Source: Christensenellaceae bacterium
GTDB lineage: Bacteria; Bacillota; Clostridia; Christensenellales; UBA1242
Assembly (NCBI GenBank): GCA_031256235.1
Contig: JAIRQZ010000009.1
Coordinates: 1 to 47,779 of the forward strand
DNA: 47,779 nt
Direction: 5' to 3'
Made by a program: the position numbers and the translations under genes. The notes beneath the pieces were generated by a model. That model ran no database searches. It saw only the letters and a list, made by a program, of their open reading frames with translations, and was not told the DNA's origin. This document shows, piece after piece, positions 2,436 to 25,902 of the stretch. Position 1 is the stretch's first letter. Each line of letters starts with the position of its first letter.

Positions 2436-2627
2436 TTGAAAAACAAAGTTTTGATACTTGCGTATATGGGCACGGGCAAAACAGAAGTGGCGCGCCGTTA
2501 TCAAAATGTCGTCGACCACGACTTTCAAGATTACAAATTTATATACGACAAGTCCATAGCACACTTGCCGATTGTCATAAAACGTGGTCAATTCTTGGAC
2601 GAAGTGATTAAACAACTTCTTTTTTAG
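2436..2627 (+). pseudogene. Short P-loop NTPase N-terminal fragment (possible gene remnant)
   Basis: A TTG immediately after the tRNA CCA opens KNKVLILAYMGTGKTEVARRY (beta strand plus Walker A GTGKT). The frame stops after about 63 codons and its end overlaps the clpX 3' end. Confidence 0.25.
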
Positions 2628-3921
2628 GTATAGCCTTACACTCAAGTTTGGCGCGTTCGGACTTTTCGATAACGCGTTTCGTTATGAATACTTTGCCACT
2701 TTTTTCGGTTCCGCTGATTTCGGTTGGGGTTTCGTACATGATGTCAAGCATGCTTTCTTCAAGTATCGTTCGCAAGGCCCGCGCTCCAGTTTTTAACTGC
2801 ATCGCAAGTTCGGCGACGGCTTCAATGGCCTCGTCGTCGAAATCAAGTTCGATATTGTCAAGCGCGAACATTTTTTTGTACTGCTTTATAAGGGCGTTTT
2901 TGGGTTTGGTCAAAATTTTGACAAGCGCCTGTTTGTTAAGAGCCTGTAGCCCAACGATAATGGGCACGCGGCCGACGAATTCGGGGATGATACCGTATTT
3001 GACAAGGTCGACGGGCGAAACGGAATGAATATCGGCAATCTCTTGCGATTCGCCAGAATCCTCCTTTAGTTCCGCGCCAAAGCCCATGGATGTGCCGTGC
3101 AATCGGCTTGACACGATTTTTTCAAGGCCGACAAAAGCGCCACCCACGATGAAAAGGATGTTTTGAGTATTAATTTGGATGCATTCTTGGTTCGGATGTT
3201 TGCGTCCGCCTTGTGGAGGCACGTTTGCAATTGTGCTTTCAATAATTTTTAAAAGCGCCTGTTGCACACCCTCACCAGAAACGTCGCGTGTAATCGAGCG
3301 GTTTTCGCCTTTCTTGGCAATTTTGTCGATTTCGTCGATGTAAATTATTCCGCGTTCTGCGCGCGCAACGTCGTAATCGGCGGCCTGGATAAGTTTTAAC
3401 AAAATGTTTTCAACGTCTTCGCCGACATATCCCGCCTCGGTCAAAGCAGTCGCATCCGCTACGGCGAAAGGCACATCAAGAATACGGGCAAGCGTCCGAG
3501 CCATAAGAGTCTTTCCCGAACCCGTGGGGCCAATCATAAGGATGTTGCTTTTTTCAAGTTCGATATCGTCTTCTTTGTCTTTGCGGGATTTTGTCGCAAC
3601 CTTCTCGACATTGTTTTGTAATGTGGTTCGATCGGAAAGATTATAATTAACGCGCTTGTAATGATTGTAAACAGCAACGGCAAGGACCTTCTTGGCGGCG
3701 TCTTGGCCAATTATGTAATCATCCAACTTCGACTTGATTTCCGCGGGCGTCGGAAGTTTCAACAACGATGTTTCCGCAGTCTTGCGCTGTTCCATAAGCA
3801 TGATGTTGGAACATGTCGAGATGCACGAGTCGCAAATGAAACTTTTGCCGTTGGGACTGGCAATTATTTTTTTTACTTCATGGTTACTGCGACCGCAAAA
3901 ACTGCAAAATGTGTTAATCAT
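2608..3921 (-). CDS. clpX: ATP-dependent Clp protease ATP-binding subunit ClpX
   Basis: It has the N-terminal C4 zinc finger (CSFCG...CDSC), Walker A GPTGSGKT, Walker [10 protein letters not shown] and ClpX-typical length. Confidence 0.95.
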
Positions 3922-3949: not shown

Positions 3950-4528
3950 TTATCGCTTAACAAAAACTTTGTCGATAAGTCCGTAATCTTTTGCTTCGGC
4001 GGCCGTCATGTAATAGTCACGCTCGCAATCGGCAGCGACTTTGTCAAGTTGTTGGCCAGCATTTTCGGATAAAATTTTTGTAAGTTTCTTCTTAAGTTTC
4101 AATATGTGTTCGGCCTGGATTTGTATATCGGTTGCTTGGCCTTGCGCGCCACCCAAAGGTTGATGAATCATGATTTCACTGTTCGGCAAAGCATATCGCT
4201 TGCCTTTCGCGCCCGAGGACAACAGGAATGCCCCCATGCTTGCCGCCATGCCGACGCAAATCGTGGACACGTCGCATTTGATGTATTGCATAGTGTCATA
4301 AATCGCCAAGCCGTCGGTGACGCTTCCACCTGGGCTGTTGATATACAAACTTATGTCCTTGGTCGGGTCCTTGGCCTCCAAGAAAATCAGTTGCGCGATA
4401 ACAACATTGGCCGATTGGCTGTTGACCTCGCCGTTCAAGAATACAACGCGATCCTCCAAAAGACGGCTGTAGATATCATAACTACGTTCTCCGTTCCCCG
4501 TTTGGTCGATGACTATAGGTATTAACAT
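3950..4528 (-). CDS. clpP: ATP-dependent Clp protease proteolytic subunit ClpP
   Basis: [11 protein letters not shown], the catalytic Ser context [11 protein letters not shown] and MIHQPLGG match ClpP. The SD aggagg lies upstream. Confidence 0.95.
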
Positions 4529-4644
4529 AAAATCCTCCTAAAACTCTTTCGAATTAGCCCAATACGGGTTAACTATATTATATACGAATAACGATGATAA
4601 ACAAACTAAAATCGTGACTTTTATGTAGAAAGTATCTATTTTGA

Positions 4645-4678
4645 TGACACCAATTTTGGCACTTATTTTTTACACTAT
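4645..4678. repeat. Island-flanking imperfect direct repeat, clpP-side copy
   Basis: tgacaccaattttggcacttattttttacacta aligns with 13460-13493 at 27 of the first 33 positions. The core is tgacacNNattttggcact. Confidence 0.45.
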
Positions 4679-4775
4679 TTCAAAAGTGCCGTATAAATTT
4701 TATCGTATTTATACAGTCATTCTTTAGATTAGACGTGTTACCTATGGCAAACAGCACATTAGGACAAAACTTTTC

Positions 4776-4797
4776 AAACCAGCAACCGCTGGTTTTT
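4776..4797. terminator. Hairpin terminator at the distal end of the island operon
   Basis: AAACCAGC-aacc-GCTGGTTT has an A-run on one side and a T-run on the other (bidirectional form). It starts 6 nt past the stop of the last operon gene. Confidence 0.4.
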
Positions 4798-4802
4798 ACA
4801 TA

Positions 4803-5123
4803 TCAAAAAGGAGACACTTGACTAGGATTTTTACCTCTTGAATGGATAATAAGATCACAAACTATTGATTGAACGACCGCTTCATTACCTGTCACAATAG
4901 TTTTCACACGTCCTTCGTTCCTATTGTACTCGACGTCAACTTTGTAGTGAGAAATCTTTGTCTGCCATTTTTTGTTTTCTAAATGCCTTTTCAATGCACC
5001 GCATAGAGTTCGTTCGGATACATCGTCATAAAATAAGTCTTTGTCTATTTTCAAAAAAGAAGCATTTGCCTTTTCAAATAAGTCTAACAAAAATTCATAG
5101 TCTTCGTCACAATCGTAGTTCAT
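4803..5123 (-). CDS. Small protein with a partial PD-(D/E)xK nuclease-like pattern (last gene of island operon)
   Basis: SERTLCGALKRHLE ... YKVDVEYNR ... VCDLIIHSRG resembles helix-E plus the (P)D strand of restriction-endonuclease-fold proteins. The ORF ends 12 aa later without an (D/E)xK strand. The ATG at 5123 has SD aaggaaa; the ORF track starts at a TTG at 5147. Confidence 0.3.
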   Translation of the reverse strand: MNYDCDEDYEFLLDLFEKANASFLKIDKDLFYDDVSERTLCGALKRHLENKKWQTKISHYKVDVEYNRNEGRVKTIVTGNEAVVQSIVCDLIIHSRGKNPSQVSPF

Positions 5124-5133
5124 TATTTTCCTT

Positions 5134-5556
5134 TTATCTTTGTACAATTCCTAAATAGGATTCTTTATATCCATAATACCTCTTCAAATAAACAGCAGTA
5201 TTCATAACTGAAGCAAATGCAAAAACCGGAAGAGCCGATTTCATATTAAATAACAAACCTGCCCAAATATACGCAGAAAATGAAACATTAACCGTAAATA
5301 CAGGAAAAGCAAAATAGCATATTATATCAATAATTACAGAGTAGATTAGAATGGATACAGACCTTACTATCTGATTATTGAATCTTTTAAGCGCCAGTGA
5401 CACAAAGTAAATAACACCTAAATTGAGGAATAAAAATGGTATTGTATTTGCTGTTGACGTACAGAATAAATAAACAGCCAGAATTGCAAGCGCTCCATAA
5501 CCTATAAACTTGTTTTTTTGTGCTACCCCATACATTAGGAAACCTGATATTGGCAT
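5134..5556 (-). CDS. Small polytopic membrane protein (4-5 TM), possibly an ECF S-component-like vitamin-binding subunit
   Basis: Hydrophobic helices run throughout. A strong SD agggagga lies upstream. It sits directly downstream of a DUF4430 gene. The function is inferred from context only. Confidence 0.35.
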   Translation of the reverse strand: MPISGFLMYGVAQKNKFIGYGALAILAVYLFCTSTANTIPFLFLNLGVIYFVSLALKRFNNQIVRSVSILIYSVIIDIICYFAFPVFTVNVSFSAYIWAGLLFNMKSALPVFAFASVMNTAVYLKRYYGYKESYLGIVQR

Positions 5557-5570
5557 TTGTTAATCCTCCC

Positions 5571-6020
5571 TTAATACCCCCAGTAAGATGCGTCCACATA
5601 TCTTAAAACAATCACATCGCCGTCCTTCACTCGGTATGCAGAAACACCGACTGCTGCTTGCTGAAAGTTTACTTCAAATGCCCAAGCGTACCCTGTTCCA
5701 GCACCCCAATCATAGTTGTCATCCTTGCCCATCGCAGAAGTAATTAACATACCGTAACTTGACTCTGTGTATCCAAGTTGCATAACTGATTTATTCTCTT
5801 TTAAAATATCCGCAACTAGATTTGATTTATAATCTTTTGAACTTATGAACTTAATCTCCACCGCACTTTCGTCTAAAATTGAGATACTAATATTTTTAAC
5901 TGCAACTTTGGGAGCAGGTATCAATGTCCAAATCATTAATCCAACCAAAACAACTGCCAAAGCAATATTAATATATAACGATATTTTACTTGGTCGCTTG
6001 TTTTGTGGTTGATTATCCAT
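5571..6020 (-). CDS. Membrane-anchored DUF4430 (transcobalamin beta-domain-like) protein
   Basis: It has an N-terminal TM anchor (ISLYINIALAVVLVGLMIWTLI). The C-terminal GYAWAFEVNFQQAAVGVSAYRVKDGDVIVLRY matches the DUF4430 signature GWxYxVNGxxxxxGxxxYxLKDGDxIxWxY. Its start overlaps the rSAM stop (ATGGATAA). Confidence 0.6.
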   Translation of the reverse strand: MDNQPQNKRPSKISLYINIALAVVLVGLMIWTLIPAPKVAVKNISISILDESAVEIKFISSKDYKSNLVADILKENKSVMQLGYTESSYGMLITSAMGKDDNYDWGAGTGYAWAFEVNFQQAAVGVSAYRVKDGDVIVLRYVDASYWGY

Positions 6021-7902
6021 TGTTTCTCCCTTTAATTTTGTCTTCAGTATCTTTTCTTGTGAAAGTATAATACTTTAACACCTTAAGGATATCCTTGTCA
6101 TCCGTTAGCGAGCTTATATCAGAAAAATTATTTTTTTCAACTATCCCCTTAAGTATTGATAGTTTTTCTTCTGGAAGCGCCCTGTAATCTCTCCACCACC
6201 TTCCGGTGCCACCATTTTTTTTGTTCTCTTCGCGGTAGATAATAAACGCTTCTGGCATATAAAGTATTTTCTCAAATTCTTTTTCGTCTTTGCCAAATGC
6301 TACTTCAAAGAACCTCTTACCTTTTCCTATCTTCCCTTTTGTTGAATTTAGCACTGCTTGTATTGCTCTAATAAACTTACGGTTCCAATGTTTGCCAGTA
6401 TACTTGCGGTCTTTGTAGCTCCACTCATCTTCTTTCCCTTTGCCTGTGATAGGATGATATTTCATAGGAAATGAAAAAATACTGACCTTAAGTTCCTCAC
6501 AAAGGTCAATATTTAGCTTCATGCGCAAAAATAGTTCCTCCGGTTTATCGTTAAAGTTGTAAAGCATGTAATTTGAAAGTTCACGTATTCCACTTTTTGC
6601 AGCCATACGAACAGATGCTTCATATGTTTCTTTGCCAGCCCATTGGTCAAATGCAATGCGCAGTGGTGAGATATTTGTTTCGGCCAGCTTGTCCATTTTC
6701 TCTTGAGTAATAAGACGTGCGTCTACCCCTTGGTTAAAATCAATAATTCTTTTCAATGGTCCACGTTTAAAATACTTTGCAAAGAGTGGCGACATAAAGC
6801 TATCAAGCTCAAGTATTTTTTCCTTTGATGCCGAAAGATAATCACTACAAAATGCTCCGTTAATTTTGGATTCTGCTTCAGCGACTACGTCCTGCTTATC
6901 AAGTTTGGTCAATTTTTTTATTAGTTCTTTATATAAATCAACGCATACTCGAATGTATGCTCGCTCGTTAAAATTATCTCGTAAGTTTTTTATTGCAATC
7001 TCGTATTTGCTTTCAGGAATATAGGTCGCGCCGTGCTGAAAACCGCAACGTTTTATTTCATCAATAATATTTGAATAACACTTTGAAGCAAGCACATTAT
7101 TATCAAGCAAAAGCAAGTTCCGTTGTTCACCAAACCGCTCTTTTGATTTTGCAATTGTTTTTTCAAGCCCGATATAATGCTTAAACTCTGGCTCAAGCTT
7201 TGGTACAGCACAAAAACCACATTTATTTGTACACCCACGAGTCATATAAGCAAAGTAAGCGTCGTGCGCTGGGTACTTATACTCAACTTCTTCCAAAATC
7301 GAATAATCAAGAGGTAATTCATCAATTATGTTCGTATCACCTTCATCAATGATACCAGGCTTATCTAATTGCCTTTCGAATGGTCTGATCCCTGTTTCTA
7401 GTTCAATTTCGTCAGGTAATAAGGATGCCATTATTCCACCAACCATTATCCGTCCGTCTGGCTTTCGAAATTTGTTTGCAAAGTTTATTGTTTCAATAGT
7501 TTTACTCCAATAAAATGTAAAAAGTGTTGTAACGCCCACGAAATCATAGACCGGATTATTTTTTATATAATCCTTATTTTTGAAGTTCTTTCTTGATGTT
7601 TGAATTTGTTCGACAATCTCACTTGACAAAATTTTGCAGATAAAATCAAAATCTTCATTTTTACCATGGCGAATAAACCTAAAAAAAAGCGGCTCTTGGC
7701 CGCACCAAGATTTGTCTGCCATGGTACACAATTGTTCCATAAAACGGTCGTATATAACTTCAGCACGAAGATCAAGTTCGCTACCCTTAAAAAAACGCAC
7801 ATCATCACCGCGCTCTCGAAAATAAGTCGCAAGTTTCATCAACCCCATCGGTGGGTACTTGTTGCGATAGTTAGGTTCGATTAAAAGCACTTTTCTTTTC
7901 AC
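6013..7902 (-). CDS. Radical SAM enzyme with N-terminal B12-binding-like domain (class B type)
   Basis: The N-terminus VLLIEPNYRNKYPPMGLMKLATYFRERGDDV is a Rossmann-like B12-binding-domain pattern. The CxxxCxxC cluster is MTRGCTNKCGFCAV. It is 629 aa long with a long uncharacterised C-terminal region. The GTG start overlaps the upstream stop (TAGTG) and has SD aaggag. Confidence 0.8.
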   Translation of the reverse strand: MKRKVLLIEPNYRNKYPPMGLMKLATYFRERGDDVRFFKGSELDLRAEVIYDRFMEQLCTMADKSWCGQEPLFFRFIRHGKNEDFDFICKILSSEIVEQIQTSRKNFKNKDYIKNNPVYDFVGVTTLFTFYWSKTIETINFANKFRKPDGRIMVGGIMASLLPDEIELETGIRPFERQLDKPGIIDEGDTNIIDELPLDYSILEEVEYKYPAHDAYFAYMTRGCTNKCGFCAVPKLEPEFKHYIGLEKTIAKSKERFGEQRNLLLLDNNVLASKCYSNIIDEIKRCGFQHGATYIPESKYEIAIKNLRDNFNERAYIRVCVDLYKELIKKLTKLDKQDVVAEAESKINGAFCSDYLSASKEKILELDSFMSPLFAKYFKRGPLKRIIDFNQGVDARLITQEKMDKLAETNISPLRIAFDQWAGKETYEASVRMAAKSGIRELSNYMLYNFNDKPEELFLRMKLNIDLCEELKVSIFSFPMKYHPITGKGKEDEWSYKDRKYTGKHWNRKFIRAIQAVLNSTKGKIGKGKRFFEVAFGKDEKEFEKILYMPEAFIIYREENKKNGGTGRWWRDYRALPEEKLSILKGIVEKNNFSDISSLTDDKDILKVLKYYTFTRKDTEDKIKGRNNG

Positions 7903-9464
7903 TATGAAAACTCCTTTTCAATCATTGCTAATATTCTTTGATTTGCTTCTGCATCAACATTAATTGCAATAATATCAAGTATTTTCCCTATAATTTTGCG
8001 CTCTACTTTACTACATCTTTTTAATCTATCGGTCCACCAAGCCTTTTTATTCTTATTATCTTCATTTGTTTCTCCCACACTTTTCTCAACTATATTTGCA
8101 TCACGATGTGTTCTTATTATATTAGCAACTTTACCTTGCAACGAGTCTTCCTCTAGACTTTCAATCTTCTTTCTAATATCTGTTTCAGCCTTCTCGGCAT
8201 TCGCCCTTATTTCAGCAAGTTCGCTTTCAAGTTTGTTTTTTTCAGCATTCCCAACAAAAGAATTCTCTTTTTTCTTTTTATCAAATTCTTTCTTTTTAAT
8301 GTTATATATTTCGATTTTTTTGTAAGAGCTGTTTATAGATGATGCGTTGTAATAAGTTCTATAGAGCTCGTCGTCAAAATATTTTTTGAGTTCAACTTCA
8401 AACTTCTCGCTCGAAGAATTAGTGTTAAAATAATCACGCTGCGAATTAGGTATTAAGTTTTTATCTATTGTAAAAACTTCACCAATAAAATAATTATTGC
8501 CTCTGTCTTCTTTAAATAATTTTTCCAAAGCGTTTTCATCGCCAATTTGGATGTTTTCTTTTCTAAGCCTTATTCCTCGCATTTTGTTTGACTTTGGAAT
8601 GGCTTGTTTAAACTGGCAAACTCCAATCCATGACCAAGCAATTAAACTTTTATCGTCACTGTAAAAACCCTTGAACGCAATATCCTTGACCTCGTCATAC
8701 TTTTTCTCACCATTTGTTAAGTGCGTAATGTATTTTTTATAAACATCTTCACCATTTATTTTAACAATATATTCATCAATTGGATACCCTATTTCCTTTG
8801 CTTGCTTGTAAATCTCTTCACGAAATCTAAATGTGTTTTGATAAGGAACAGGTGCTACAAATGATAGATATTCTTTAACTTTAATAATGTTTAATAAACC
8901 ATTATTGTGTTTGTCAATATTCTCTAATTTTACAACAAAAAAATGGCTTTCAGTATTCTCCGTTTTTTCTGAACTGAAGGAGTAAATTTCTTTCAATATT
9001 TCGGTAGCACTATATTTTTTCTCTTTTGTTTGATGCTTGTTTAAGAGCTCACGCATTCTTTTGGCATCACAGGACATTGTTGAAATAATATTTTCACCCT
9101 TGCATTTTGTTGAAAAAACTAGTTTATCACAAAATGCCATTCCGCAAAGCCTTCCTATTCCACGAAATCCCTTATCTTCGCCAAGTGTTTTATCTGAACT
9201 TGCCACATTAACTAATATCCTTTGGAAATCATCTTTGGATATTCCTGTTCCGTTATCTTTAATTTCAATACTTTTTGCAGATTGGTCTATCCATATTTCA
9301 ACTAAACCCTCATTTTTATTAGAAATTATTTCTTGTTCAACTGCTTTATCAATAGAATCACAAGCATTTTGAATATATTCTCTATAACAAACGAAGGGAT
9401 TTTTATACATCCCTGTCGTTAAACTATCTAAAATATTCGCACCAAAAATAATTTGTTCTTCCAT
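7902..9464 (-). CDS. GHKL (Bergerat-fold) ATPase, MORC/Hsp90/MutL-like, with C-terminal coiled-coil
   Basis: It has N box EYIQNACDS, G1 box DNGTGIS and G2 box GFRGIGRLCG. The C-terminal region is Lys/Glu-rich heptad-like (NKLESELAEIRANAEKAETDIRKKIESLEE). Confidence 0.75.
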   Translation of the reverse strand: MEEQIIFGANILDSLTTGMYKNPFVCYREYIQNACDSIDKAVEQEIISNKNEGLVEIWIDQSAKSIEIKDNGTGISKDDFQRILVNVASSDKTLGEDKGFRGIGRLCGMAFCDKLVFSTKCKGENIISTMSCDAKRMRELLNKHQTKEKKYSATEILKEIYSFSSEKTENTESHFFVVKLENIDKHNNGLLNIIKVKEYLSFVAPVPYQNTFRFREEIYKQAKEIGYPIDEYIVKINGEDVYKKYITHLTNGEKKYDEVKDIAFKGFYSDDKSLIAWSWIGVCQFKQAIPKSNKMRGIRLRKENIQIGDENALEKLFKEDRGNNYFIGEVFTIDKNLIPNSQRDYFNTNSSSEKFEVELKKYFDDELYRTYYNASSINSSYKKIEIYNIKKKEFDKKKKENSFVGNAEKNKLESELAEIRANAEKAETDIRKKIESLEEDSLQGKVANIIRTHRDANIVEKSVGETNEDNKNKKAWWTDRLKRCSKVERKIIGKILDIIAINVDAEANQRILAMIEKEFS

Positions 9465-9479
9465 TGTTTACCTCTAATT

Positions 9480-11159
9480 TTACTTAAATTGCTTATATAT
9501 TGGTTTTGGGAATCTAACTTTTAATAAAGACCTGAATACTGGATTTTGCAAGATATACTCTCCTTGATCTAATCGTGTGAGCATATTCTTGTAAGTTGAA
9601 TGGATACTTGAATAACTACTTGTTGAGGTTTCTATTGAGTTTGTTCGCCCGTAAGCGTGTGTCGCACAGTTTCCAGTGACACGTTTGTGAATATCAGACC
9701 TAAACTGTTCTGCACCAAACAACACAACACCCAATGAACGACCTCTCTCTGCTACATCCAATATTCCTCTAAGTATAGGTGAATGCTTTGGCGCATCTGT
9801 GCCAGCATATTTATTTAATTCATCAATAAAAACAACAATACGCTCCGGTGGATTTACACCATGTTCCTCGCTGAAAACATCTTGCTTGAGGTCGTAAATA
9901 GTTCTTAAGCAATCACCGAAAACAAAAGCCTGCTTATCCTCCGCCAGCTTTGCAATATCTACAACAAAAACATCATTTGCTTTAATTTGCTTTAATTCGT
10001 CTTGCAAACGACATTCATTGTTTTGTTTGCTAAATCCATTTGCGAACATGCTATCGTTTTTAATAGCTTTTGAAACTATTCTTTTAAACTTGCGCCAACT
10101 CATAATTGAGATTTCATCTTTCTGTGATTTCGGGTCACCTTTCTGTGTCTTTTCAGAAACTTTATCTAAGAAATCCTGCCAAGTGTCAAGACCGTTAAAC
10201 TCACCATCGCCAATTATCTTTTCAATAATTGACTCCATTGTCTGCGTAGTATCATCAATATTTGCAAACATCATCTCGATGCTTTCTTTATCATCTTTAT
10301 ACAGATATTTATATTTCTTCAACTGTTGTGCTCTTATGTAATTATCAACATCGTCTTTACCCATGTATGTAGATTGACGCGAATCAGAGGACGCAGAGTA
10401 TGGGATAAAATATTTAACATTTTCGAACGGTTTATCGATTAAACCTAATCTTTTGTATTCTTCTTTTACCTTAACTGACGCATCGCTTTCGTTCTCTTTA
10501 TCAATGGCCAACAAATCTCTGCCCTTAACATTAAAAATTACAAAAGCAGTTTTGCGCGCATCTTCGTTTTGTTGATTATAATCTTGAATAGCTTTAAGCA
10601 AAAACATTGCGTATGAAGTTTTTGTAGCCAAACCAGAAATACCTGAAATATTCAAATGTGCTCCTTCTGGACCAAGTAGAAATTCACTATTAAGATGTAC
10701 TGGCAAGATAACTGGGTTTTCTGTTCCAGCATACATTTTTAAAGAACCGCAAAGTAATTTGTGTTCAATTTTGTCAAGACCTAATGCCTGTATGATTTCT
10801 TCTTCGGTAGCTAAATAAACCTTATCATTATTGTGAACAGGTGTTTCATTGCCTTTAGTATTAAATGAAACTTTTGCTTCTACATAATTCATACCTACTC
10901 GCAACGTCGGTTCCAGCAACTCTGTGTCGCCAAAATCCGAAGAAATGAAGTTAGTTAAGAAACTTTGTGCGTCAGTAATATGCAAAATATTTTCGATGAC
11001 ACCAAAAGTATGTGAACCATCTCTTCGTTCCACTTTTACAACATCAAAAGCGTGCAACCTTAGATCAGAGTTTGTCCAAAATTTGAACTCATCGATTGTG
11101 GTCGGATACTTCTCCGTCGCCAACACCTTACCAATTGCCACTTTAGTTTCTTTTCCCAT
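9480..11159 (-). CDS. HerA/FtsK-superfamily ATPase (HerA-like, DUF87-type)
   Basis: The N-terminal barrel-like segment is IGKVLA...FDVVKVER...TFGVIENI. It has a deviant P-loop NISGISGLATKTSYAMFLL, Walker B RIVVFIDELNKY and a downstream RSLGVVLFGAEQ...THAYGRT. The start is set at the ATG at 11159 with SD aaggaga; the ORF track extends to 11219. Confidence 0.65.
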   Translation of the reverse strand: MGKETKVAIGKVLATEKYPTTIDEFKFWTNSDLRLHAFDVVKVERRDGSHTFGVIENILHITDAQSFLTNFISSDFGDTELLEPTLRVGMNYVEAKVSFNTKGNETPVHNNDKVYLATEEEIIQALGLDKIEHKLLCGSLKMYAGTENPVILPVHLNSEFLLGPEGAHLNISGISGLATKTSYAMFLLKAIQDYNQQNEDARKTAFVIFNVKGRDLLAIDKENESDASVKVKEEYKRLGLIDKPFENVKYFIPYSASSDSRQSTYMGKDDVDNYIRAQQLKKYKYLYKDDKESIEMMFANIDDTTQTMESIIEKIIGDGEFNGLDTWQDFLDKVSEKTQKGDPKSQKDEISIMSWRKFKRIVSKAIKNDSMFANGFSKQNNECRLQDELKQIKANDVFVVDIAKLAEDKQAFVFGDCLRTIYDLKQDVFSEEHGVNPPERIVVFIDELNKYAGTDAPKHSPILRGILDVAERGRSLGVVLFGAEQFRSDIHKRVTGNCATHAYGRTNSIETSTSSYSSIHSTYKNMLTRLDQGEYILQNPVFRSLLKVRFPKPIYKQFK

Positions 11160-11169
11160 TTTTTTCTCC

Positions 11170-12366
11170 TTAAAATAACTGCAGAAAACTCTCTGCTGAT
11201 ATATATTTTGATTTGACATATGTTTCTGTCATATACATCGGATAAATATGATTTGCCCATCGTAAATCCGAGCCATAACACACTGGGTTTCGCTCGTTTA
11301 TGATATACGCACTCAACGTGTCCACTAACTCGCTGTCAATTCCGTTTTCAATTTCTTCGCTTGTTACTAGCATCTTTTCTACTTTTAATATTCCGTCAAA
11401 TGGAGTCCTAGTTTTCTCTTGACCTTGTAAACGAATATACCAAACAGCAAAGTCAACATCACCACAGAATTCATTATGATAACGCGCCACAGGAGTTCTA
11501 CTATACAATGGCAAATCTGCAATAAATCCTGGATTTGGTTTCCCATTAATATCGCAACAAACTGAAGGATTAAAATGCTTGGACGCACCTAATACGAAAT
11601 TGTAATTCTGTTTAAACTTCGCAAATTGTTTCTTTTTCTCCTCTTTAGTTATATCTTTTTCATAAACAGGTTGAGAGTATTCAAGCGAGCCATCTTTCAC
11701 TAAATAATTATTTTGGTCTAGTTTTCCTTGGCTGACAAATAATGCAACCATTTCTTTTTCTTTTTCAATCATTCTGTCCTGGACTTTTGCAGTCGCTCGG
11801 TCTTCACACTCTCCATCTTTCTTAATATCATTAGTTTTATAACCCAAAACAGATCCGATTTTAATGCCGAGTCTTTTTAATTGATTACAAGTTTGTGAAA
11901 TCTTTAAGGCGAGTTGCGAAAAGAACTCTTCTTTTCTATCGGCATTAGCTTTCTCAGGCACGGCTAAAACAATTTCGTTAATGCATCTTTCCTGTTTTAA
12001 TATTCTATTTTTTCGTTTACAACATCCTACTCCTATTTGCCCAGCAATTATTGGATAAATTTCCATGCGATTACCCGAAGCATCATAACCCACATTATCA
12101 ACTTTATATACCTTCCTTGATCCATCTAAAAAATAAGTTAATATTTGTGAATCCCCATGTGATAGTTCTTTAGCCTTTTGTGTCAAATTTATCCATGTTT
12201 TATACTTTTCAGTTTCGCCGTATTTTTGCCACACATTTGATTTTTCTCTTTCGTCAAAACTTATTGCCGAATAATCGCCACTATCTAAACTATATTTACG
12301 CGCCTTATAACTTTTCCCACCTGTTTCGGTTTCGAGGATAGCGGTTATCTTTCGTTTTTCTAACAT
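11170..12366 (-). CDS. NurA-like nuclease
   Basis: It has two DGS motifs in beta-strand contexts (LTYFLDGSRKVY and YLVKDGSLEY) and a C-terminal ANHIYPMY segment, as in NurA-domain proteins. It lies immediately upstream of a HerA-like ATPase, the canonical pairing. Confidence 0.5.
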   Translation of the reverse strand: MLEKRKITAILETETGGKSYKARKYSLDSGDYSAISFDEREKSNVWQKYGETEKYKTWINLTQKAKELSHGDSQILTYFLDGSRKVYKVDNVGYDASGNRMEIYPIIAGQIGVGCCKRKNRILKQERCINEIVLAVPEKANADRKEEFFSQLALKISQTCNQLKRLGIKIGSVLGYKTNDIKKDGECEDRATAKVQDRMIEKEKEMVALFVSQGKLDQNNYLVKDGSLEYSQPVYEKDITKEEKKKQFAKFKQNYNFVLGASKHFNPSVCCDINGKPNPGFIADLPLYSRTPVARYHNEFCGDVDFAVWYIRLQGQEKTRTPFDGILKVEKMLVTSEEIENGIDSELVDTLSAYIINERNPVCYGSDLRWANHIYPMYMTETYVKSKYISAESFLQLF

Positions 12367-12375
12367 ATGAACTTA

Positions 12376-12404
12376 TATGTATCACAAATTTACATGAAAG
12401 TCAA
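12376..12404 (-). promoter_or_regulatory. Candidate promoter of the island operon
   Basis: On the minus strand it reads TTGACT, a 17-nt spacer ending in TGa (extended -10), then TACATA. The -10 ends 9 nt before the ATG at 12366, and there is no SD. Confidence 0.35.
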
Positions 12405-12459
12405 ACCCAAAAACATCACGAAAGTCCAGTTAACAGTACACTACTTTGCTTTTCATACT

Positions 12460-13383
12460 TCAAACGAGAGACAAATAATGATCAAGCGACTTCTCTGCGA
12501 CTGAAATTACCAGCTTAACAAATGTGGTATAATCTTTTGTAACGTGCGCATGGTCGAGCGCGTCATAGTACTCAAGGCGCTGTTCCCTACGAATTATTAA
12601 TGGCGGGAAGCCATTCTTAATCGCAATGAAATTCATCAGTAGCCTTGCAGTGCGCCCGTTGCCGTCAACGAAGGGGTGGATTCTAACAAATTCACCATGA
12701 AGTAATGCCGAAACGACAAGCGGATGGTATTGCTTTGACCAGGTCTTTAAGTCAAGCGTTAGTTGTTCCATTTGTTCAGGAACGAAAATATGGTCCGGGG
12801 GAATATGTGTGGCGCCGGAAATGATAACCTTCTCGTTGCGATAACGGCCAGCGTTCTCTTGGTCGATTTCTTTTAATACAAGCTGATGAATACTTTTGAT
12901 GTCGCGTTCAATGAGAACAGAATTCTTACTTACTAGCTCCTCAAGATACAAGATTGCCTCTTTGTGGTTTATTGCCTCAAGATGTTCCTTAACGCTCTTG
13001 CCACCAATTGTGATGCCCTCGAGGACAACCTTTGTCTCTTTAAGTGTTAAAGTATTTCCTTCGATACCGTTGCTGTTGTATGTCCATTCAATAAGTTCGT
13101 TGGACTTGATGCTTTTAATCGTCGCAATCGGAAAGGGACGCTTACTGTTTAACAGTGCAAGTTTTTCATCGATGGTTGCAAGGTTACTTGGCAAGTTAAT
13201 TATGAACTCACTTGGCTTTACACTAACACGAGTATCACGTGGCTTCTTAACATCGTTTGGAATCAGCCAGGATTTACCCATTTTGGTTGCACCTTGGATG
13301 CGCCCTTCTTCTATGAGTTGCCTTATTCTTCTTTCGCTTATGCCCCATTCTTTCGAGAGGTCGTTCAAGGTTTTGTATTCCAT
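12460..13383 (-). CDS. Fic family protein (class II, AMPylase-type) with N-terminal HTH
   Basis: It has the Fic motif HPFVDGNGRTAR, the intramolecular inhibitory motif SNGIEGN ((S/T)xxxE(G/N)) and an N-terminal excisionase/MerR-like HTH (LSKEWGISERRIRQLIEEGRI). Confidence 0.9.
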   Translation of the reverse strand: MEYKTLNDLSKEWGISERRIRQLIEEGRIQGATKMGKSWLIPNDVKKPRDTRVSVKPSEFIINLPSNLATIDEKLALLNSKRPFPIATIKSIKSNELIEWTYNSNGIEGNTLTLKETKVVLEGITIGGKSVKEHLEAINHKEAILYLEELVSKNSVLIERDIKSIHQLVLKEIDQENAGRYRNEKVIISGATHIPPDHIFVPEQMEQLTLDLKTWSKQYHPLVVSALLHGEFVRIHPFVDGNGRTARLLMNFIAIKNGFPPLIIRREQRLEYYDALDHAHVTKDYTTFVKLVISVAEKSLDHYLSLV

Positions 13384-13387
13384 ATCT

Positions 13388-13418
13388 ATATCCTACCGCA
13401 TACGGAAGGATATGTCAA
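13388..13418 (-). promoter_or_regulatory. Fic promoter with overlapping palindromic operator
   Basis: On the minus strand it reads TTGACA (13413-13418), a 17-nt spacer, then TAGGAT (13390-13395), with 6 nt to the ATG. An imperfect 26-nt palindrome ATATCCT-n12-AGGATAT (13388-13413) covers the spacer and -10. Confidence 0.45.
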
Positions 13419-13459
13419 CACATTATTACATAAGGAATTAAAAAGATTATCGGATTTTC

Positions 13460-13493
13460 TGACACTCATTTTGGCACTCAATTTTTACTGTAA
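13460..13493. repeat. Island-flanking imperfect direct repeat, tig-side copy
   Basis: tgacactcattttggcactcaatttttactgta aligns with 4645-4678. It lies between the tig terminator and the Fic promoter. Confidence 0.45.
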
Positions 13494-13505
13494 TATTAAA
13501 ATCGT

Positions 13506-13538
13506 TTTAAAAGGCGCCTTTGCGGGCGCCTATTTTTA
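13506..13538 (-). terminator. Rho-independent terminator of tig
   Basis: The stem is GGCGCC (13513-13518) / GGCGCC (13525-13530) with a 6-nt loop, flanked by an A-run and a T-run. It lies about 70 nt downstream of the tig stop. Confidence 0.6.
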
Positions 13539-13605
13539 TTACTTATTTTCTTGTCGAATTAGTAGAATGTTTGTTGAAAGGGTCAACTACTATTGGTACT
13601 AGCAT

Positions 13606-14748
13606 TTATTTTGCCTCCTTTAATTTATTATGTGTTTCAAGGAATTTTATAACCGAATCAAAGTCTTTCAAGTTTTCTTTCTTTGCAATGGCGTCCAAAA
13701 TAAGGGCGACTTTTGCGCTGTTTTGGGCGTTATTGCGTTGGATTTTTTCAATCTTTTCCACGGTCGACCCGATTGCAGTTGCGTACATTTCAAGAGTATA
13801 GCCACTTTGTGCAAGACTTTGCTGGGTGTCGTGCATTATTTGATGAAAATATCGGGCGACAAGTTTATCGTGCACATCAACTTTTGTGTTGTCGCAAATC
13901 ACGCGCAACAGCTCTTGTTCGTTAAGTTTGTCACTTTCGATTTTGGATTGCTTTTCCAAACGCGCTCGAATGTCCTTTTTGAACTCGGCCAAGGTGTTGA
14001 ACTCGCTTGATTCCTTTGCCAAATTGTCGTCAATCGCAGGAATTTCACGGATTAGGATGTTGCGGATTTCAACTTTAAAAACGGACTTTGCGCCTGCCAA
14101 TTCCTTGGCGTGGTAGTCTTTTGGGAAAGTCACGTTCACATCAAGTTTGTCACCAACTGTTTTGCCAACAAGTTGTTCTTCAAACGTGTCGATGAACGAA
14201 TGCGAACCAATTTCAAGTTCATGGTTTTTGGCCTCGCCACCCGCAAACTTTTTGCCATCGACAAAGCCCGTGAAATCGATAACCGCGATATTGCCGTTTG
14301 CGATTTTGTGACCTTTGTCCGCCGCGATTTGACGAGTACGGCCACCAGCCACACGAGCCAGGAAACCGTCAACTTCTTTGTCTGTGACTTTTATTGTTTT
14401 TGAATTAATCTCAAGCCCCGTATATTTGCCAAGTGTGAATTTGTCCTGGACTGGGATTACCGCAATAAACTCGATACCGTCAGGTTTTTGGCTTATATCA
14501 ACCTCGGGGTCGTCCAAAGGCGTCACATTCGGGTTACCTTCCAGATACTTTGAAAAGGCCTTGTTGAACAGTGCATTGAAAGCAGGTTCAGTAAAAACAT
14601 CGCCATATTCCTTTTCAATCATGCCGCGTGGAGCGTTGCCGTCGCGAAAGCCCTTGACCTTGTATCGGGCGCCCTCGCGCTTGCAAGCCTCGTCCATAGC
14701 GGTGTCGACCTGCGCCTTTGTGAAGTTAAATTTTGCTGTTACATTCAT
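13606..14748 (-). CDS. tig: Trigger factor (compact, 380 aa)
   Basis: It has the ribosome-binding motif GFRDGNAP and the FKBP-type PPIase segment VIDFTGFVDGKKFAGGEAKNHELEIGSHSFIDTFEEQLVG. Confidence 0.9.
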   Translation of the reverse strand: MNVTAKFNFTKAQVDTAMDEACKREGARYKVKGFRDGNAPRGMIEKEYGDVFTEPAFNALFNKAFSKYLEGNPNVTPLDDPEVDISQKPDGIEFIAVIPVQDKFTLGKYTGLEINSKTIKVTDKEVDGFLARVAGGRTRQIAADKGHKIANGNIAVIDFTGFVDGKKFAGGEAKNHELEIGSHSFIDTFEEQLVGKTVGDKLDVNVTFPKDYHAKELAGAKSVFKVEIRNILIREIPAIDDNLAKESSEFNTLAEFKKDIRARLEKQSKIESDKLNEQELLRVICDNTKVDVHDKLVARYFHQIMHDTQQSLAQSGYTLEMYATAIGSTVEKIEKIQRNNAQNSAKVALILDAIAKKENLKDFDSVIKFLETHNKLKEAK

Positions 14749-23080: not shown

Positions 23081-23381
23081 CTATGTACACATTTACCACG
23101 TTTTTAAGGTCTTTGTAAACGGCTTTGTCGACATTATTGTATGGCCATTCGATAAAGAACAAATTATCTCCGTGCAAAATTTCAAAAAAGTCGGTGTTGT
23201 ACAATTCGGATTGAGCCTTTATACGGTACAAATCCGCATGGAAGATGTTGGGAGCGTATTGATTTATGATTGTAAAGGTCGGGCTTGTTACGTTAACTTG
23301 GTCGCCCAAAATCGCGCGGACGACTTTTTGGGTAAACATAGTCTTGCCCGCCCCCATCTCCCCGTGTAAAAGTATTACCAC
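23052..23381 (-). CDS. tsaE: tRNA t6A biosynthesis ATPase TsaE (short form)
   Basis: It has LHGEMGAGKT (P-loop), SPTFTIINQY and ADLYRI. It starts at a GTG with a stop codon immediately upstream. Confidence 0.8.
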   Translation of the reverse strand: MVILLHGEMGAGKTMFTQKVVRAILGDQVNVTSPTFTIINQYAPNIFHADLYRIKAQSELYNTDFFEILHGDNLFFIEWPYNNVDKAVYKDLKNVVNVYIDEKHKVTFN

Positions 23382-23970
23382 GGTTTAATGGTAGCGCAAA
23401 AAGGCTTAATAGTGCAAACGAAAACATCACTGTTGCGATGACGATATAGTAAATGTTGAAGCGCACAAGGAAACTTGTTGCCAAGATTATAATGCCCATG
23501 AAGATGTAACTGCGGACTTTTTTGCGTTGAAAGGTCACAAATTTAAGCATTGTAAACATCATATGGGCGCGTGAACGGAATTGCAACAAGGTGATATTTT
23601 TCGACTTTGCGGACTTTTTCACGGCGGGAGAAAAAGATTTTGCCGCGATGTATGTGTTGGCTTCGCGGTCGGTTGCCGAGACACAGGCCTCAAGGTCAGA
23701 GGTTTTGGGCTCGGCTTTGAAAAGCGGGAACAGGTTGATTTTTTGGGTTTGTGTGTGGATGATATACTTTTTTTGCACAGGTACGGCGCGGATTTGGGCA
23801 ACGCGCTTTCGAGTTAATAACCAGTAAACCAAATTCACGGCCATCATAATCGTAAATGAAATCAAAAACACAAAAATAATATCGCGAAAATAAAACGACA
23901 GCCACAAATACGACAACAAAAACACGATGAACGAACGTGCAAGTAAATTACTTATCGATGCGATTCTCAC
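23293..23970 (-). CDS. Membrane protein, unknown function
   Basis: It has hydrophobic helices at both ends and a basic central region. The 3' end overlaps tsaE by 89 nt, so the true stop or frame of the tail is uncertain. Confidence 0.35.
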   Translation of the reverse strand: MRIASISNLLARSFIVFLLSYLWLSFYFRDIIFVFLISFTIMMAVNLVYWLLTRKRVAQIRAVPVQKKYIIHTQTQKINLFPLFKAEPKTSDLEACVSATDREANTYIAAKSFSPAVKKSAKSKNITLLQFRSRAHMMFTMLKFVTFQRKKVRSYIFMGIIILATSFLVRFNIYYIVIATVMFSFALLSLFALPLNRGNTFTRGDGGGQDYVYPKSRPRDFGRPS

Positions 23971-25072
23971 ACTTTAAGTATTGACAGATTTTGACTTGGA
24001 GTTTATCAATCGGCCTGTCCAAGTATTTTGCAAGCATCCAGTTTATTGTATAATTGTATATTATACCTATGACGAGGCAACTTGAAAAGACGATTGCGAC
24101 CGAATAAAGATTTTGCCAAATCGAACCATTTGTTACAAACCATTCTTTCCAAAACAAAGTGCGAAAGTTACGGGCTTCATGAATCAAGTACACGGTCAAT
24201 GTTCCAGCGGAGATTATGTTTATCGGTTTGAAACTGAATTTCAAATTTGCAAATACAACAAGCCACAATGTTGCCGACAAAATCACAAAAGGACCATGAA
24301 GTGCGGTGTCTCGATAACTTGAACAACAAATTGTTACGATTATTACCATAGTCACAACCAGTGAGATTGGTAAAATTATCAAATTATTTTTAAGAATTTT
24401 GTTTGGGTACAGGCGCAAGTAAGCCGCAATAAAATACAACAAAACAAATGTCATAAGGTCCGAATGGATATAAGGCGCATATGCAGACGTTTTAAAACAC
24501 TCGGATAAAATTTTTGGAAGAATACTTATGTAAAAGATACCTATTGCAAGTATTATTAAGTGGAGGCGAGGGCCCGTATTCCGAATTATGATATTTAAAA
24601 GTGGAAACATAAGGAACAAGAACACATATGGAATCATGAACCAGTTACTTGAGATGTAGGCGCGAAAGGTGTTTGGCGCAAGATGCATAAAGACTTTTAC
24701 TAAACTGTTGGGCGGATTAGTGTTGTTGTGGGCGAAGTAAAATATAAAAGCGATCACAAATGAAAAGAAGGATATTTGGAATAACAGTTTAAAAAGTTTT
24801 TTCAACTGGAATTTTGAAGTACACAAAAAATAGCCTGTGATTAAAACAAATACTGCGCAACCCCATTTCCCCCAAGAGCCAAGGAGTTCAAAACCGACAC
24901 CAAGTTTAGGTTTTTGCTTTGAAGGAACTGCGTATGTCCAATAATGGCTGAAAACAATCATCAACATCGCGATAAGGCGCAACAATTCTATTCCAGAATT
25001 ACGCGACCTTGGTTGGTTGGTTGGTTGGTTGGTTGGTTGGTTGGTTGGTTGGTTGGTTGGTTCATATGTCAC
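23948..25072 (-). CDS. Acyltransferase family 3 (OafA/OatA-like O-acyltransferase) membrane protein
   Basis: It has IELLRLIAMLMIVFSHY and about 10 TM helices. The N-terminal PTNQ x4 is encoded by the CCAA tract. The only in-frame start is a GTG at 25072. Confidence 0.8.
   Translation of the reverse strand: MTYEPTNQPTNQPTNQPTNQPRSRNSGIELLRLIAMLMIVFSHYWTYAVPSKQKPKLGVGFELLGSWGKWGCAVFVLITGYFLCTSKFQLKKLFKLLFQISFFSFVIAFIFYFAHNNTNPPNSLVKVFMHLAPNTFRAYISSNWFMIPYVFLFLMFPLLNIIIRNTGPRLHLIILAIGIFYISILPKILSECFKTSAYAPYIHSDLMTFVLLYFIAAYLRLYPNKILKNNLIILPISLVVTMVIIVTICCSSYRDTALHGPFVILSATLWLVVFANLKFSFKPINIISAGTLTVYLIHEARNFRTLFWKEWFVTNGSIWQNLYSVAIVFSSCLVIGIIYNYTINWMLAKYLDRPIDKLQVKICQYLKCENRIDK
25009..25062 (-). 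repeat. Tetranucleotide tract (CCAA)13 on the coding strand
   Basis: Thirteen perfect units were counted by hand (GGTT on the plus strand). They lie in codons 5-22 of the acyltransferase ORF. Confidence 0.95.
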
Positions 25073-25081
25073 ATTATATCA
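25073..25081 (-). promoter_or_regulatory. Extended -10 element TGaTATAAT upstream of the acyltransferase gene
   Basis: On the minus strand it reads TGATATAAT, directly followed by GTGACAT and then an ATG (25065-25063). Confidence 0.4.
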
Positions 25082-25095
25082 TAACATTTCAAGTT

Positions 25096-25902
25096 TTACG
25101 AGTCAATTTTTTTCAATTCGCGCTTTAGTCGGGCAATGATTTTCTTTTCAAGACGGCTTATATAGGATTGCGAGATACAAAGCATTTCGGCGACTTCTTT
25201 TTGCGTGCGCTCTTCGCCACCCGTATTGCCCAGGCCAAATCTCAATTGCATGATTTCTTGTTCGCGGATGCTTAAGCGGTTAATTGCAAGCCACAACAGA
25301 TTGCGTTCCACCCCAACGTCAAGTTCGTTTTGTACGTTGTCTTGGTCAACACAGATAACGTCGCCAAGGCGGATTTCGGTACCGTCGCTGTCCATATTAA
25401 TGGGCTCGTCAATGCTTACATCTCCCCTGTTTTTTAATACTTTGCGCAGGTGCATTAAAATTTCATTTTCAATGCAACGACTTGAATATGTTGCAAGTTT
25501 GATATTTTTTTCGTACTTGAAACTGTTGACGGCTTTGATAAGACCGATACTTCCGACACTTATTAAATCTTCGATGTCAAGGCCAGTGTTTTCAAACTTT
25601 TTGGCGATATAGACTACCAATCGCAGGTTGTGCTCGATTAACTTTTGACGGGTTTCGGGATATCCCAAATGAAGTTCCTGTAAAAGGGTTTCTTCTTCGT
25701 CCTTGGACAGCGGTTTGGCAAGGGCTTCGGTGCCGTTTATAAAGTATACGAAATTGTCATCCCATAACTTTGCGTTGGTGATTTTCTGAAACAAAGATTT
25801 TGCTCGGGCAAAAATACTGACATGTGAACGAGAGCCCATTACGCTGTTTTCAAATATGGTCATAGTGCAATGTATATTAACAAAGGGCAAGAAATATGAC
25901 AT
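25096..25902 (-). CDS. sigE: Sporulation sigma factor, SigE-like (with pro-sequence)
   Basis: [49 protein letters not shown] and [18 protein letters not shown] match the SigE/SigK group. It has an N-terminal extension and a spoIIGA gene nearby. The exact start is uncertain (Met at codons 1, 14 and 22). Confidence 0.75.

Follow-up and report, generated by a model that had tools for sequence, protein, structure and literature searches.

The contig JAIRQZ010000009.1 of a Christensenellaceae bacterium, analysed here over its 47,779 nucleotides (nt) and called the window, raises the question of why its trigger factor gene, tig, stands apart from clpP and clpX, and what lies between them. The open reading frame (ORF) list has eight minus-strand ORFs in the interval, and together with the Pfam matches it agrees with an earlier note on this DNA, which had counted eight intervening genes. 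Foreign DNA has almost certainly been inserted at the 5′ end of clpP. The best explanation overall is very likely a horizontally acquired, composite island of ~9.1 kb in the start of clpP. Its main cargo is a four-gene cassette (NurA, HerA, a GHKL ATPase, and a radical SAM enzyme) that may act against mobile elements such as phages or plasmids, and the remaining genes encode a Fic protein and three small proteins. The flanking genes are the following.

2608-3921, minus strand: clpX, the downstream flank; relatives' ClpX 77-82% identical (tblastn) and always directly 3′ of clpP
3950-4528, minus strand: clpP (Pfam CLP_protease 3e-85); relatives' ClpP 88-93% identical
13606-14748, minus strand: tig, the upstream flank; trigger factor in a short form of 380 amino acids (aa), with Pfam Trigger_N, FKBP_C, and Trigger_C

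The tig-clpP-clpX junction in relatives

The comparison comprised 160 tig-anchored loci from scans of species-representative genomes and metagenomes, with closer relatives added by protein search. Searches for exact copies of the window's Tig and ClpP sequences gave no match. In the Clostridia-type loci inspected, clpP comes directly after tig in 19/19, and clpX is next wherever the contig is long enough. Measured by Tig identity, L174 (70%), L175 (67%), L176 (64%), and L081 (51%) come closest to the window, and the first three likewise have the order tig-clpP-clpX. The tig-clpP gap is -16 to +24 nt in the six closest relatives (tig 51-70% identical), where the clpP ATG touches the tig stop codon or overlaps it. 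The order recJ-rnj-lspA-rluD-two small genes-tig-clpP-clpX is common to the window, L175, L176, and L081. L174 is a 5.6-kb contig and shares with the window just the portion from the small genes through tig and clpP to clpX. None of the island genes has a tblastn match in any of the 160 tig-anchored loci.

The earlier proposal of an insertion into a conserved tig-clpP-clpX neighbourhood therefore holds, since the junction is compact in the closest relatives. Alignment with the closest genomes, which had been suggested as a search for an empty tig-clpP junction, finds tig abutting clpP in L174, L175, L176, and L081.

Two side observations concern the same junction. Synteny between the window and its relatives stops directly after clpX. 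A relative with tig 50% identical (L084:2628-3386) has 758 nt between tig and clpP, in which an ORF on the opposite strand and, ahead of clpP, a promoter-like site were apparent by eye. Such a gap would point to a small insertion that took place at this junction independently.

The insertion point and the rebuilt clpP start

The two ends of the inserted segment contain the following features, listed in the direction of transcription.

13581-13605, minus strand: native clpP 5′ relic (ATGCTAGTACCAATAGTAGTTGACC, encoding MLVPIVVD), the left junction of the insert
13512-13531, minus strand: GC-rich hairpin with a T-run (terminator scan), inside the inserted DNA
13390-13418, minus strand: Fic promoter-like site, TTGACA-17-TAGGAT (consensus scan only)
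4572-4600, minus strand: clpP promoter-like site, TTATCA-17-TATAGT (consensus scan), with TATAAT at 4577-4582
4504-4528, minus strand: first 25 nt of the working clpP (encoding MLIPIVID), which replace the native 5′ end and mark the insert's right junction

The relic (13605-13581) directly follows the tig stop codon (13608-13606) and resembles the clpP starts of relatives at 20-22 of 25 positions. It is like the window's own working clpP start at 19/25 positions, the other 6/25 being different, and no other 25-mer of the window, on either strand, attains 17/25 matches to the clpP start. Past GACC the relic sequence diverges completely, and its short ORF continues to a TAA at ~13543, followed by the hairpin. 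The terminator scan listed this palindromic hairpin on the plus strand; on the minus strand, TTTTAAAA comes next.

Because tig abuts clpP in relatives and a clpP relic stands directly after the tig stop in the window, the junction is broken in clpP codon 9. The foreign segment is ~13580-4504, or ~9.08 kb. Relatives have neither the terminator, the Fic and clpP promoter-like sites, the AGGAGG ribosome-binding site 3′ of the clpP promoter-like site, nor the first eight codons of the working clpP. The earlier note had regarded the tig terminator as intact and the insertion as lying exactly in the old intergenic spacer. This picture is not supported in that form, as the closest relatives have no spacer and the terminator is in DNA absent from them. 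The TATAAT that it had placed upstream of clpP is present but lies in the inserted DNA and not in an old spacer. The island that it had placed at 4679-13459 is real, but is narrower there than the segment given above.

The far end of the island gives clpP a promoter-like site, a ribosome-binding site, and codons 1-8, by which clpP-clpX is kept intact yet uncoupled from tig. Transcripts of tig probably stop at the imported terminator. The two copies of the clpP start differ at 6/25 positions, yet the cargo has hardly ameliorated towards the host. The replacement end had therefore probably diverged before the element brought it in. The insertion itself is an ordinary kind of event with a tidy anatomy, in which an essential protease gene is cut in its first codons and mended, and expression of clpP-clpX is rewired away from tig by the island's own promoter and start.

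In E. coli, phage 21 and e14 integrate into icd at its 3′ end and replace that end of their target gene. The window island is similar to these in its insertion within a coding gene, in the arrival of a diverged substitute end with which the gene stays functional, and in the displaced native fragment that stays as a relic at the other junction. In contrast, it replaces the 5′ end of its target, so that a promoter and a ribosome-binding site are supplied too. It also duplicates just 25 nt and has no integrase left. Integration was probably catalysed by a recombinase of the parent mobile element that has since been lost, and the cassette adjoins large serine recombinases and tyrosine integrases at other loci.

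The anatomy of the junctions also bears on a possible misassembly, by which foreign DNA would have entered the contig. The window looks metagenome-derived, its closest matches being metagenome contigs, and such an origin would allow for a false join. However, the contig leaves and re-enters one locus, with junctions 25 nt apart in ancestral coordinates, and the clpP frame is precisely restored together with ribosome-binding and promoter-like sites. A chimera would not do so, and misassembly is highly improbable.

Composition of the inserted segment

The GC content of the island is 0.31-0.37 at roughly 4500-12500, compared with ~0.45 elsewhere (1-kb windows). GC at third codon positions (GC3) is 0.25-0.33 in the seven genes at 4803-12366 and 0.486 ± 0.052 in 39 other window ORFs. 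The Fic gene, with a host-like GC3 of 0.458, is the sole exception among the eight island genes. Tetranucleotide distance is 0.33-0.51 in every 2-kb island window and 0.213 ± 0.029 outside (maximum 0.316), a deviation of >3 standard deviations from the rest of the window. Codon log-likelihood is a poor separator of the island, with z values of -0.6 to -4.5 (Fic -2.1), and the island is marked more clearly by GC3 and tetranucleotides. On the plus strand, the GC skew is -0.13 to -0.26 across 4500-12500 and ~0 in the flanks.

The foreign composition and composite make-up claimed in the earlier note are thus both recovered. The sliding-window check that it had asked for finds a break in GC, GC3, and tetranucleotides at the island, and the host-like member is indeed Fic. 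The comparison of codon usage with the flanking genes that it had also proposed succeeds with GC3 and largely fails with log-likelihood.

Of the features of a genomic island, the segment has absence from the same locus in relatives, a deviant composition (Fic excepted), and flanking direct repeats. The latter comprise the outer 25-nt clpP 5′ repeats and an inner pair of 41-nt repeats, both imperfect. It lacks an integrase, recombinase, or transposase of its own. The low-GC operon genes, from NurA through the last small gene, overlap or are at most a few tens of nt apart. No riboswitch was found in the island by Rfam, in which only tRNAs matched.

The composition and the junctions together address the alternative that this site had the genes ancestrally and every sampled relative has since lost them by deletion. 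Sampling is sparse, and the tig of the nearest relative is only 70% identical, which leaves some room for such losses. A deletion, however, would leave no duplicated clpP start. The GC3 and tetranucleotide usage are strongly foreign, the compact junction is found in >20 relatives at several depths, and the cassette is found in unrelated contexts, including viral contigs and an archaeon. An ancestral origin is accordingly given very little credence.

The nested inner repeat

Inside the outer clpP repeats is a second pair of direct repeats.

13448-13488, minus strand: inner imperfect direct repeat, left copy, extending over ~13439-13501 with indels; upstream of the Fic promoter-like site
4633-4673, minus strand: inner imperfect direct repeat, right copy, extending over ~4626-4685; upstream of the clpP promoter-like site

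The copies (repeat family D2) have 78% identity over 41 nt, or ~63 nt with indels, and are equally distant upstream from the two promoter-like sites. Their local alignment score is 25, compared with 11.2 ± 1.6 in 2000 shuffles, of which 0/2000 attain 25. The core AGTGCCAAAATnnGTGTCA is present at two places in the window only, and no other window stretch matches the repeat. Four matches of the core in IMG/VR were judged no more than chance. The 41-nt repeat was also considered as a CtsR operator and rejected: it is a misfit to the tandem heptad consensus, and the motif is found at the two island ends only. The repeat could be one regulatory region used twice in a single element, or the scar of a second integration.

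A second integration would imply two steps. The abutting tig-clpP junction would first have given way to a short imported spacer with the relic, the terminator, one repeat, the promoter, the ribosome-binding site, and the new start of clpP. The 8.8-kb block from Fic through the last small gene would have integrated afterwards at the 41-63-nt repeat. The repeats (4633-4673 and 13448-13488) enclose the eight genes exactly, the likeness between the copies continues through both promoter-like sites, and the core motif is nowhere else in the window, all of which would suit this order of events. It is nevertheless a somewhat doubtful history, although one to be taken seriously. Both repeat copies are in DNA absent from all relatives, and no spacer-only intermediate was observed among them. 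The repeats are only 73-78% identical and could be a regulatory region duplicated within a single element, and the repeat-bounded block is itself non-uniform, with the GC of Fic differing from that of the cassette. The spacer picture of the earlier note could still fit this second step, as an insertion of the 8.8-kb block between the 41-nt repeats into an earlier-imported spacer.

Proteins of the four-gene cassette

The cassette of the acquired island comprises four genes.

11170-12366, minus strand: NurA-family nuclease, 398 aa, the first cassette gene, assigned by the fold match of its AlphaFold2 (AF2) model
9480-11219, minus strand: HerA-family hexameric ATPase/translocase (PDB 7f6d_B HerA, E 1.5e-41; PADLOC mad8, 1.7e-9)
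7902-9464, minus strand: GHKL (Hsp90/MutL/MORC-type) ATPase (Pfam HATPase_c_3, 3.7e-11, 43.6 bits against a cut-off of 25)
6013-7902, minus strand: radical SAM enzyme of 629 aa, whose N-terminal domain is predicted to be of the B12-binding type; the signature gene of the cassette

NurA: The NurA protein has no Pfam or PDB sequence match. Its AF2 model matches NurA structures only, the best PDB matches in Foldseek being the D. radiodurans HerA-NurA complex (7f6d_G, E 1.4e-9) and Sulfolobus NurA (2ygk, 2e-6). D81-G82-S83 (DGS) is invariant among homologues, and the homologue HM1_1332 is labelled 'NurA domain-containing' by UniRef. No match to NurA was found in the plasmid collection.

HerA: The listed HerA ORF begins 20 codons upstream of M21, where the homologue alignment starts. 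Judged from the sequence, translation probably begins at M21 (~11159), and the gene would then overlap the end of NurA. A Walker B-like FIDE and a P-loop-like GISGLAxKTS are invariant. Matches of DUF5838/PagF to the middle of HerA are sub-threshold and were disregarded. The pair consists of a HerA-family ATPase with a non-canonical P-loop and an adjacent nuclease with a modelled NurA fold.

GHKL ATPase: This protein has a charged C-terminal region, and Hsp90 N-domains are among its PDB matches. The residues E29, N33, D36, D70, G74, G102, and G104, characteristic of a Bergerat fold, are invariant, proteobacterial homologues included.

Radical SAM enzyme: The cluster motif CTNKCGFC (CxxxCxxC) has invariant C224, C228, and C231. 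The protein matches phrog_9298, 'radical SAM domain protein' (1e-34). The Pfam B12-binding match is 23.5 bits, below the cut-off of 32.1, and Pfam Radical_SAM is also below threshold. The AF2 model has a predicted local distance difference test (pLDDT) score of 84.5, and its top PDB matches in Foldseek are TsrM and MgmA, then AprD4. As in the cobalamin-dependent (class B) enzymes TsrM and MgmA, which are its best structural matches, the model has a predicted Rossmann-type B12-like domain and then a radical SAM barrel with CxxxCxxC. It differs from these in its identity of 12-14%, its low TM-scores, and an extra helical C-terminal region of ~200 aa. The genomic context suggests a nucleic acid substrate rather than a peptide or metabolite.

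Distribution of the cassette

The order NurA-HerA-GHKL-radical SAM is identical in 17/17 other loci mapped, comprising L161-L164, L168-L170, L172, L173, and 8/10 IMG/VR contigs; one further contig ends within the radical SAM gene. The cassette is patchy across bacteria and archaea, at 58-65% identity. The radical SAM family is large: it comprises at least 7,969 clusters when grouped at 90% identity, and 246 of the representatives at 50% identity match with E ≤ 1e-30.

The neighbourhoods vary. In a Butyricicoccus metagenome-assembled genome (MAG), the cassette adjoins SIR2-TPR and PLD-helicase genes, and another Firmicutes MAG also has it. In Heliomicrobium modesticaldum Ice1 it lies amid four transposases. 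A contig whose NurA homologue is assigned by NCBI to a Methanomicrobiales archaeon has the cassette with 58% identity. One cassette is in a phage-like region ending with two large serine recombinases, and another is in an element with KilA-N and MobL. Neighbours on IMG/VR contigs include D5 primase, AAA_13 with Macro, HD-CE with HATPase, a serine recombinase, and a tyrosine integrase. The comparison of the island DNA with the phage collection gave a single 95-nt match, in the GHKL-radical SAM part, to an unannotated 'Bacteriophage sp.' contig that also has a radical SAM homologue. Prophage-like elements are among the mobile carriers of the cassette, which is found on both sides of the boundary between bacteria and archaea, and its radical SAM enzyme has thousands of homologues in public data.

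Alphaproteobacterial plasmids have a variant of this arrangement. In L166 (pNL1, NC_002033.1 58383-66382) and L167 (NZ_CP104153.1), radical SAM homologues that are 33-36% identical are flanked by a DGQHR (DndB-like) gene and a GHKL gene. A PIN-like gene paired with another GHKL gene is close by, and NurA-HerA is missing. Because these plasmid variants keep the pair without NurA-HerA, GHKL-radical SAM looks like the conserved core, and the nuclease module looks exchangeable. The proteobacterial pairing of a radical SAM enzyme with a DndB-like protein hints at a new DNA modification.

A further short contig (L165:1-6377, JGI Ga0264413_152566) contains the GHKL and radical SAM genes. After them come genes for a protein of 299 aa, a YhcG nuclease, a sigma-70-like protein, and a tyrosine-integrase fragment of 170 aa, with the beginning of clpX last, on the same strand. 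This clp-adjacent cassette may indicate a recurrent target region, or may be a coincidence.

Possible function of the cassette

The cassette has about an even chance of a defence function, judging from its neighbours. NurA-HerA would be an ATP-driven DNA-degrading effector, and the GHKL-radical SAM pair would be the sensing or self-marking part. Among HerA-based defence-like systems, the main cargo of the island plausibly represents a new variant. Were it an immune system, it would extend the known defence repertoire by a NurA nuclease and a radical SAM enzyme of the B12 type.

A more specific form of immunity would be a new class in which the cobalamin-type radical SAM enzyme and a GHKL DNA clamp either label self DNA chemically or produce a signal or poison derived from nucleotides, and NurA-HerA processively destroys invading DNA that lacks the mark. 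The DUF4430 protein and the membrane protein encoded next to it could then feed cobalamin. This detailed version is unlikely; if true, it would be the logic of restriction-modification built on radical chemistry.

The comparison with known systems gives both likenesses and differences. Like the NurA-HerA end-resection complex (7f6d; 2ygk), the window has HerA by sequence and NurA by fold, in adjacent genes with a probable overlap. It differs from that complex in that the pair is in a mobile four-gene cassette, without Mre11-Rad50, with a non-canonical P-loop, and with an accessory-type distribution. SIR2-HerA and DUF4297-HerA (PMC11472057, PMC11514289, PMC11291478) and HerA/FtsK 'capture' (PMC10853773, PMC12839542) resemble it in having a HerA-family ATPase with an effector enzyme and in their defence-island contexts. 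In contrast to SIR2-HerA and DUF4297-HerA, the window effector would be NurA, and GHKL and radical SAM have no counterpart there. No SIR2 or DUF4297 domain was found in the island by Pfam or PADLOC, and it is thus not a SIR2-HerA/DUF4297-HerA (Gao_Her) system. From the set mad1-mad8 of MADS (methylation-associated defence system), which includes a methyltransferase, only mad8 matches (HerA, 1.7e-9) and no other mad model does, so that the island is not a MADS either. The window has no DGQHR/DndB gene as in Dnd/Dpd-like systems; DGQHR flanks only the 33-36%-identical plasmid homologues.

Prokaryotic viperins are stand-alone radical SAM defence enzymes. Ophion is a radical SAM immune system with PHP and PRTase partners (bioRxiv 10.1101/2025.09.30.679545). 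In both, as would be the case here, the immune genes cannot do without their radical SAM enzyme; they differ from the window cassette in that no GHKL ATPase, NurA, or HerA partners the radical SAM enzyme. No description of the cassette was found in the searchable literature, in which subscription papers are thinly covered, so that 'undescribed' is provisional. The relevant terms are present in a Dnd reappraisal paper and a ProPhylo paper in other contexts only and not for this cassette.

The cassette might instead be a DNA-repair or housekeeping module, for example of end resection and radical repair like that of spore photoproduct lyase. Characterised NurA-HerA complexes resect double-strand breaks (PDB 7f6d match; PMC12977600), and only HerA and Fic match any defence model. 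Nevertheless, the patchy spread over bacteria and archaea at 58-65% identity, the viral contigs, and the recombinase, transposase, and defence-gene neighbours do not resemble a housekeeping module. The cassette is absent from all close relatives of the window organism, and no Mre11-Rad50 partner is present. A repair role is therefore considered improbable, and the reading of an acquired island with a candidate anti-mobile-element cassette is preferred. In this reading the insertion and its limits, the families and folds of the proteins, and the conserved order and mobile surroundings of the cassette are shown, whereas any defence or DNA-modifying activity is inferred.

Several points weigh against this preferred reading. 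As regards the insertion, the nearest comparator is a different species (tig only 70% identical), so that the insertion is not datable, and no strain-level empty site was seen. As the earlier note had stated, there is no integrase, transposase, or recombinase among the island ORFs: domain profile searches found no such domain in the eight, and the intergenic gaps are too short for one. There are also no perfect att repeats in the island, and with neither recombinase nor att repeats the mechanism of integration is one that we infer. The host-like GC of Fic and the nested repeats suggest a history beyond a single event. As regards the cassette, the NurA model has a pLDDT of only 67.5 (moderate confidence), the HerA P-loop is non-canonical (GISGLAxKTS compared with GxxxxGK[ST]), and the TM-scores of the radical SAM model to TsrM and MgmA are low (0.30-0.36). 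Defence is argued from the neighbourhood alone, and PADLOC recognises just HerA (mad8) and Fic.

The Fic gene

12460-13383, minus strand: HTH_17-Fic protein, 307 aa (Pfam Fic 9e-22; GC3 0.458)

The Fic protein matches PADLOC PDC-S04 (9.6e-39) and SoFic (7e-31), and human FICD in the PDB (3.8e-38). It contains both the active-site motif HPFVDGNGR (HPFVDGNGRTAR in the translation) and an inhibitory-type SNGIEG. The Fic/Doc adenosine monophosphate (AMP)-transferase signature HxFx(D/E)GNGRxxR is present together with the match to the family hidden Markov model (HMM). The gene is thus predicted to encode an autoinhibited-type HTH-Fic AMP-transferase, and would be older than the cassette at this site or from another donor. 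HPFxDGNGR, the inhibitory-type Glu motif, and the strong HMM matches are in line with AMP-transferases of the SoFic, PDC-S04, and FICD type. In contrast to these, the window Fic has an N-terminal HTH_17 and no linkage to the cassette elsewhere; Fic accompanies the cassette in no other cassette locus mapped. Relatives of Fic on viral contigs are only 43% identical, lack the HTH domain, and are uninformative. A link between the HTH_17 of Fic and a small HTH_17 gene upstream of the Heliomicrobium cassette was rejected, as there is no similarity (E 0.56).

Small downstream genes

5571-6020, minus strand: DUF4430 protein with an N-terminal membrane anchor (Pfam PF14478, 34.6 bits against a cut-off of 23.8); it overlaps by 8 nt with the end of the radical SAM gene
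5134-5556, minus strand: small hydrophobic protein, 140 aa, probably a multi-pass membrane protein (from the translation)
4803-5147, minus strand: small protein of ~106-114 aa, the last gene of the low-GC operon (PADLOC PD-Lambda-3_A 5e-4, weak)

Among the cassette loci examined, these three genes accompany the cassette in this window only. The 140-aa membrane protein has no match in Pfam, NCBIfam, PADLOC, or PHROGs. PF14478 (DUF4430) is taken here to be a transcobalamin-like C-terminal domain. The position of the DUF4430 gene is suggestive, because a gene for a transcobalamin-like domain directly follows that of a B12-type radical SAM enzyme, and the DUF4430 and membrane proteins may supply cobalamin.

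Other features of the window

The trigger factor of this lineage is short, at 376-383 aa, and covers about two-thirds of the Trigger_C model; in distant Clostridia it has ~425-450 aa. Downstream of clpX, at 1239-2435, are tRNA-His (plus strand), a MazG-like gene, tRNA-Pro, and a NUDIX gene. A second and milder low-GC stretch is found at 23300-25100, with a GC content of 0.365-0.40. A membrane acyltransferase gene of the Acyl_transf_3 family (23948-25072, GC 0.372) adjoins a sigma-70 family gene at 25096-25902.

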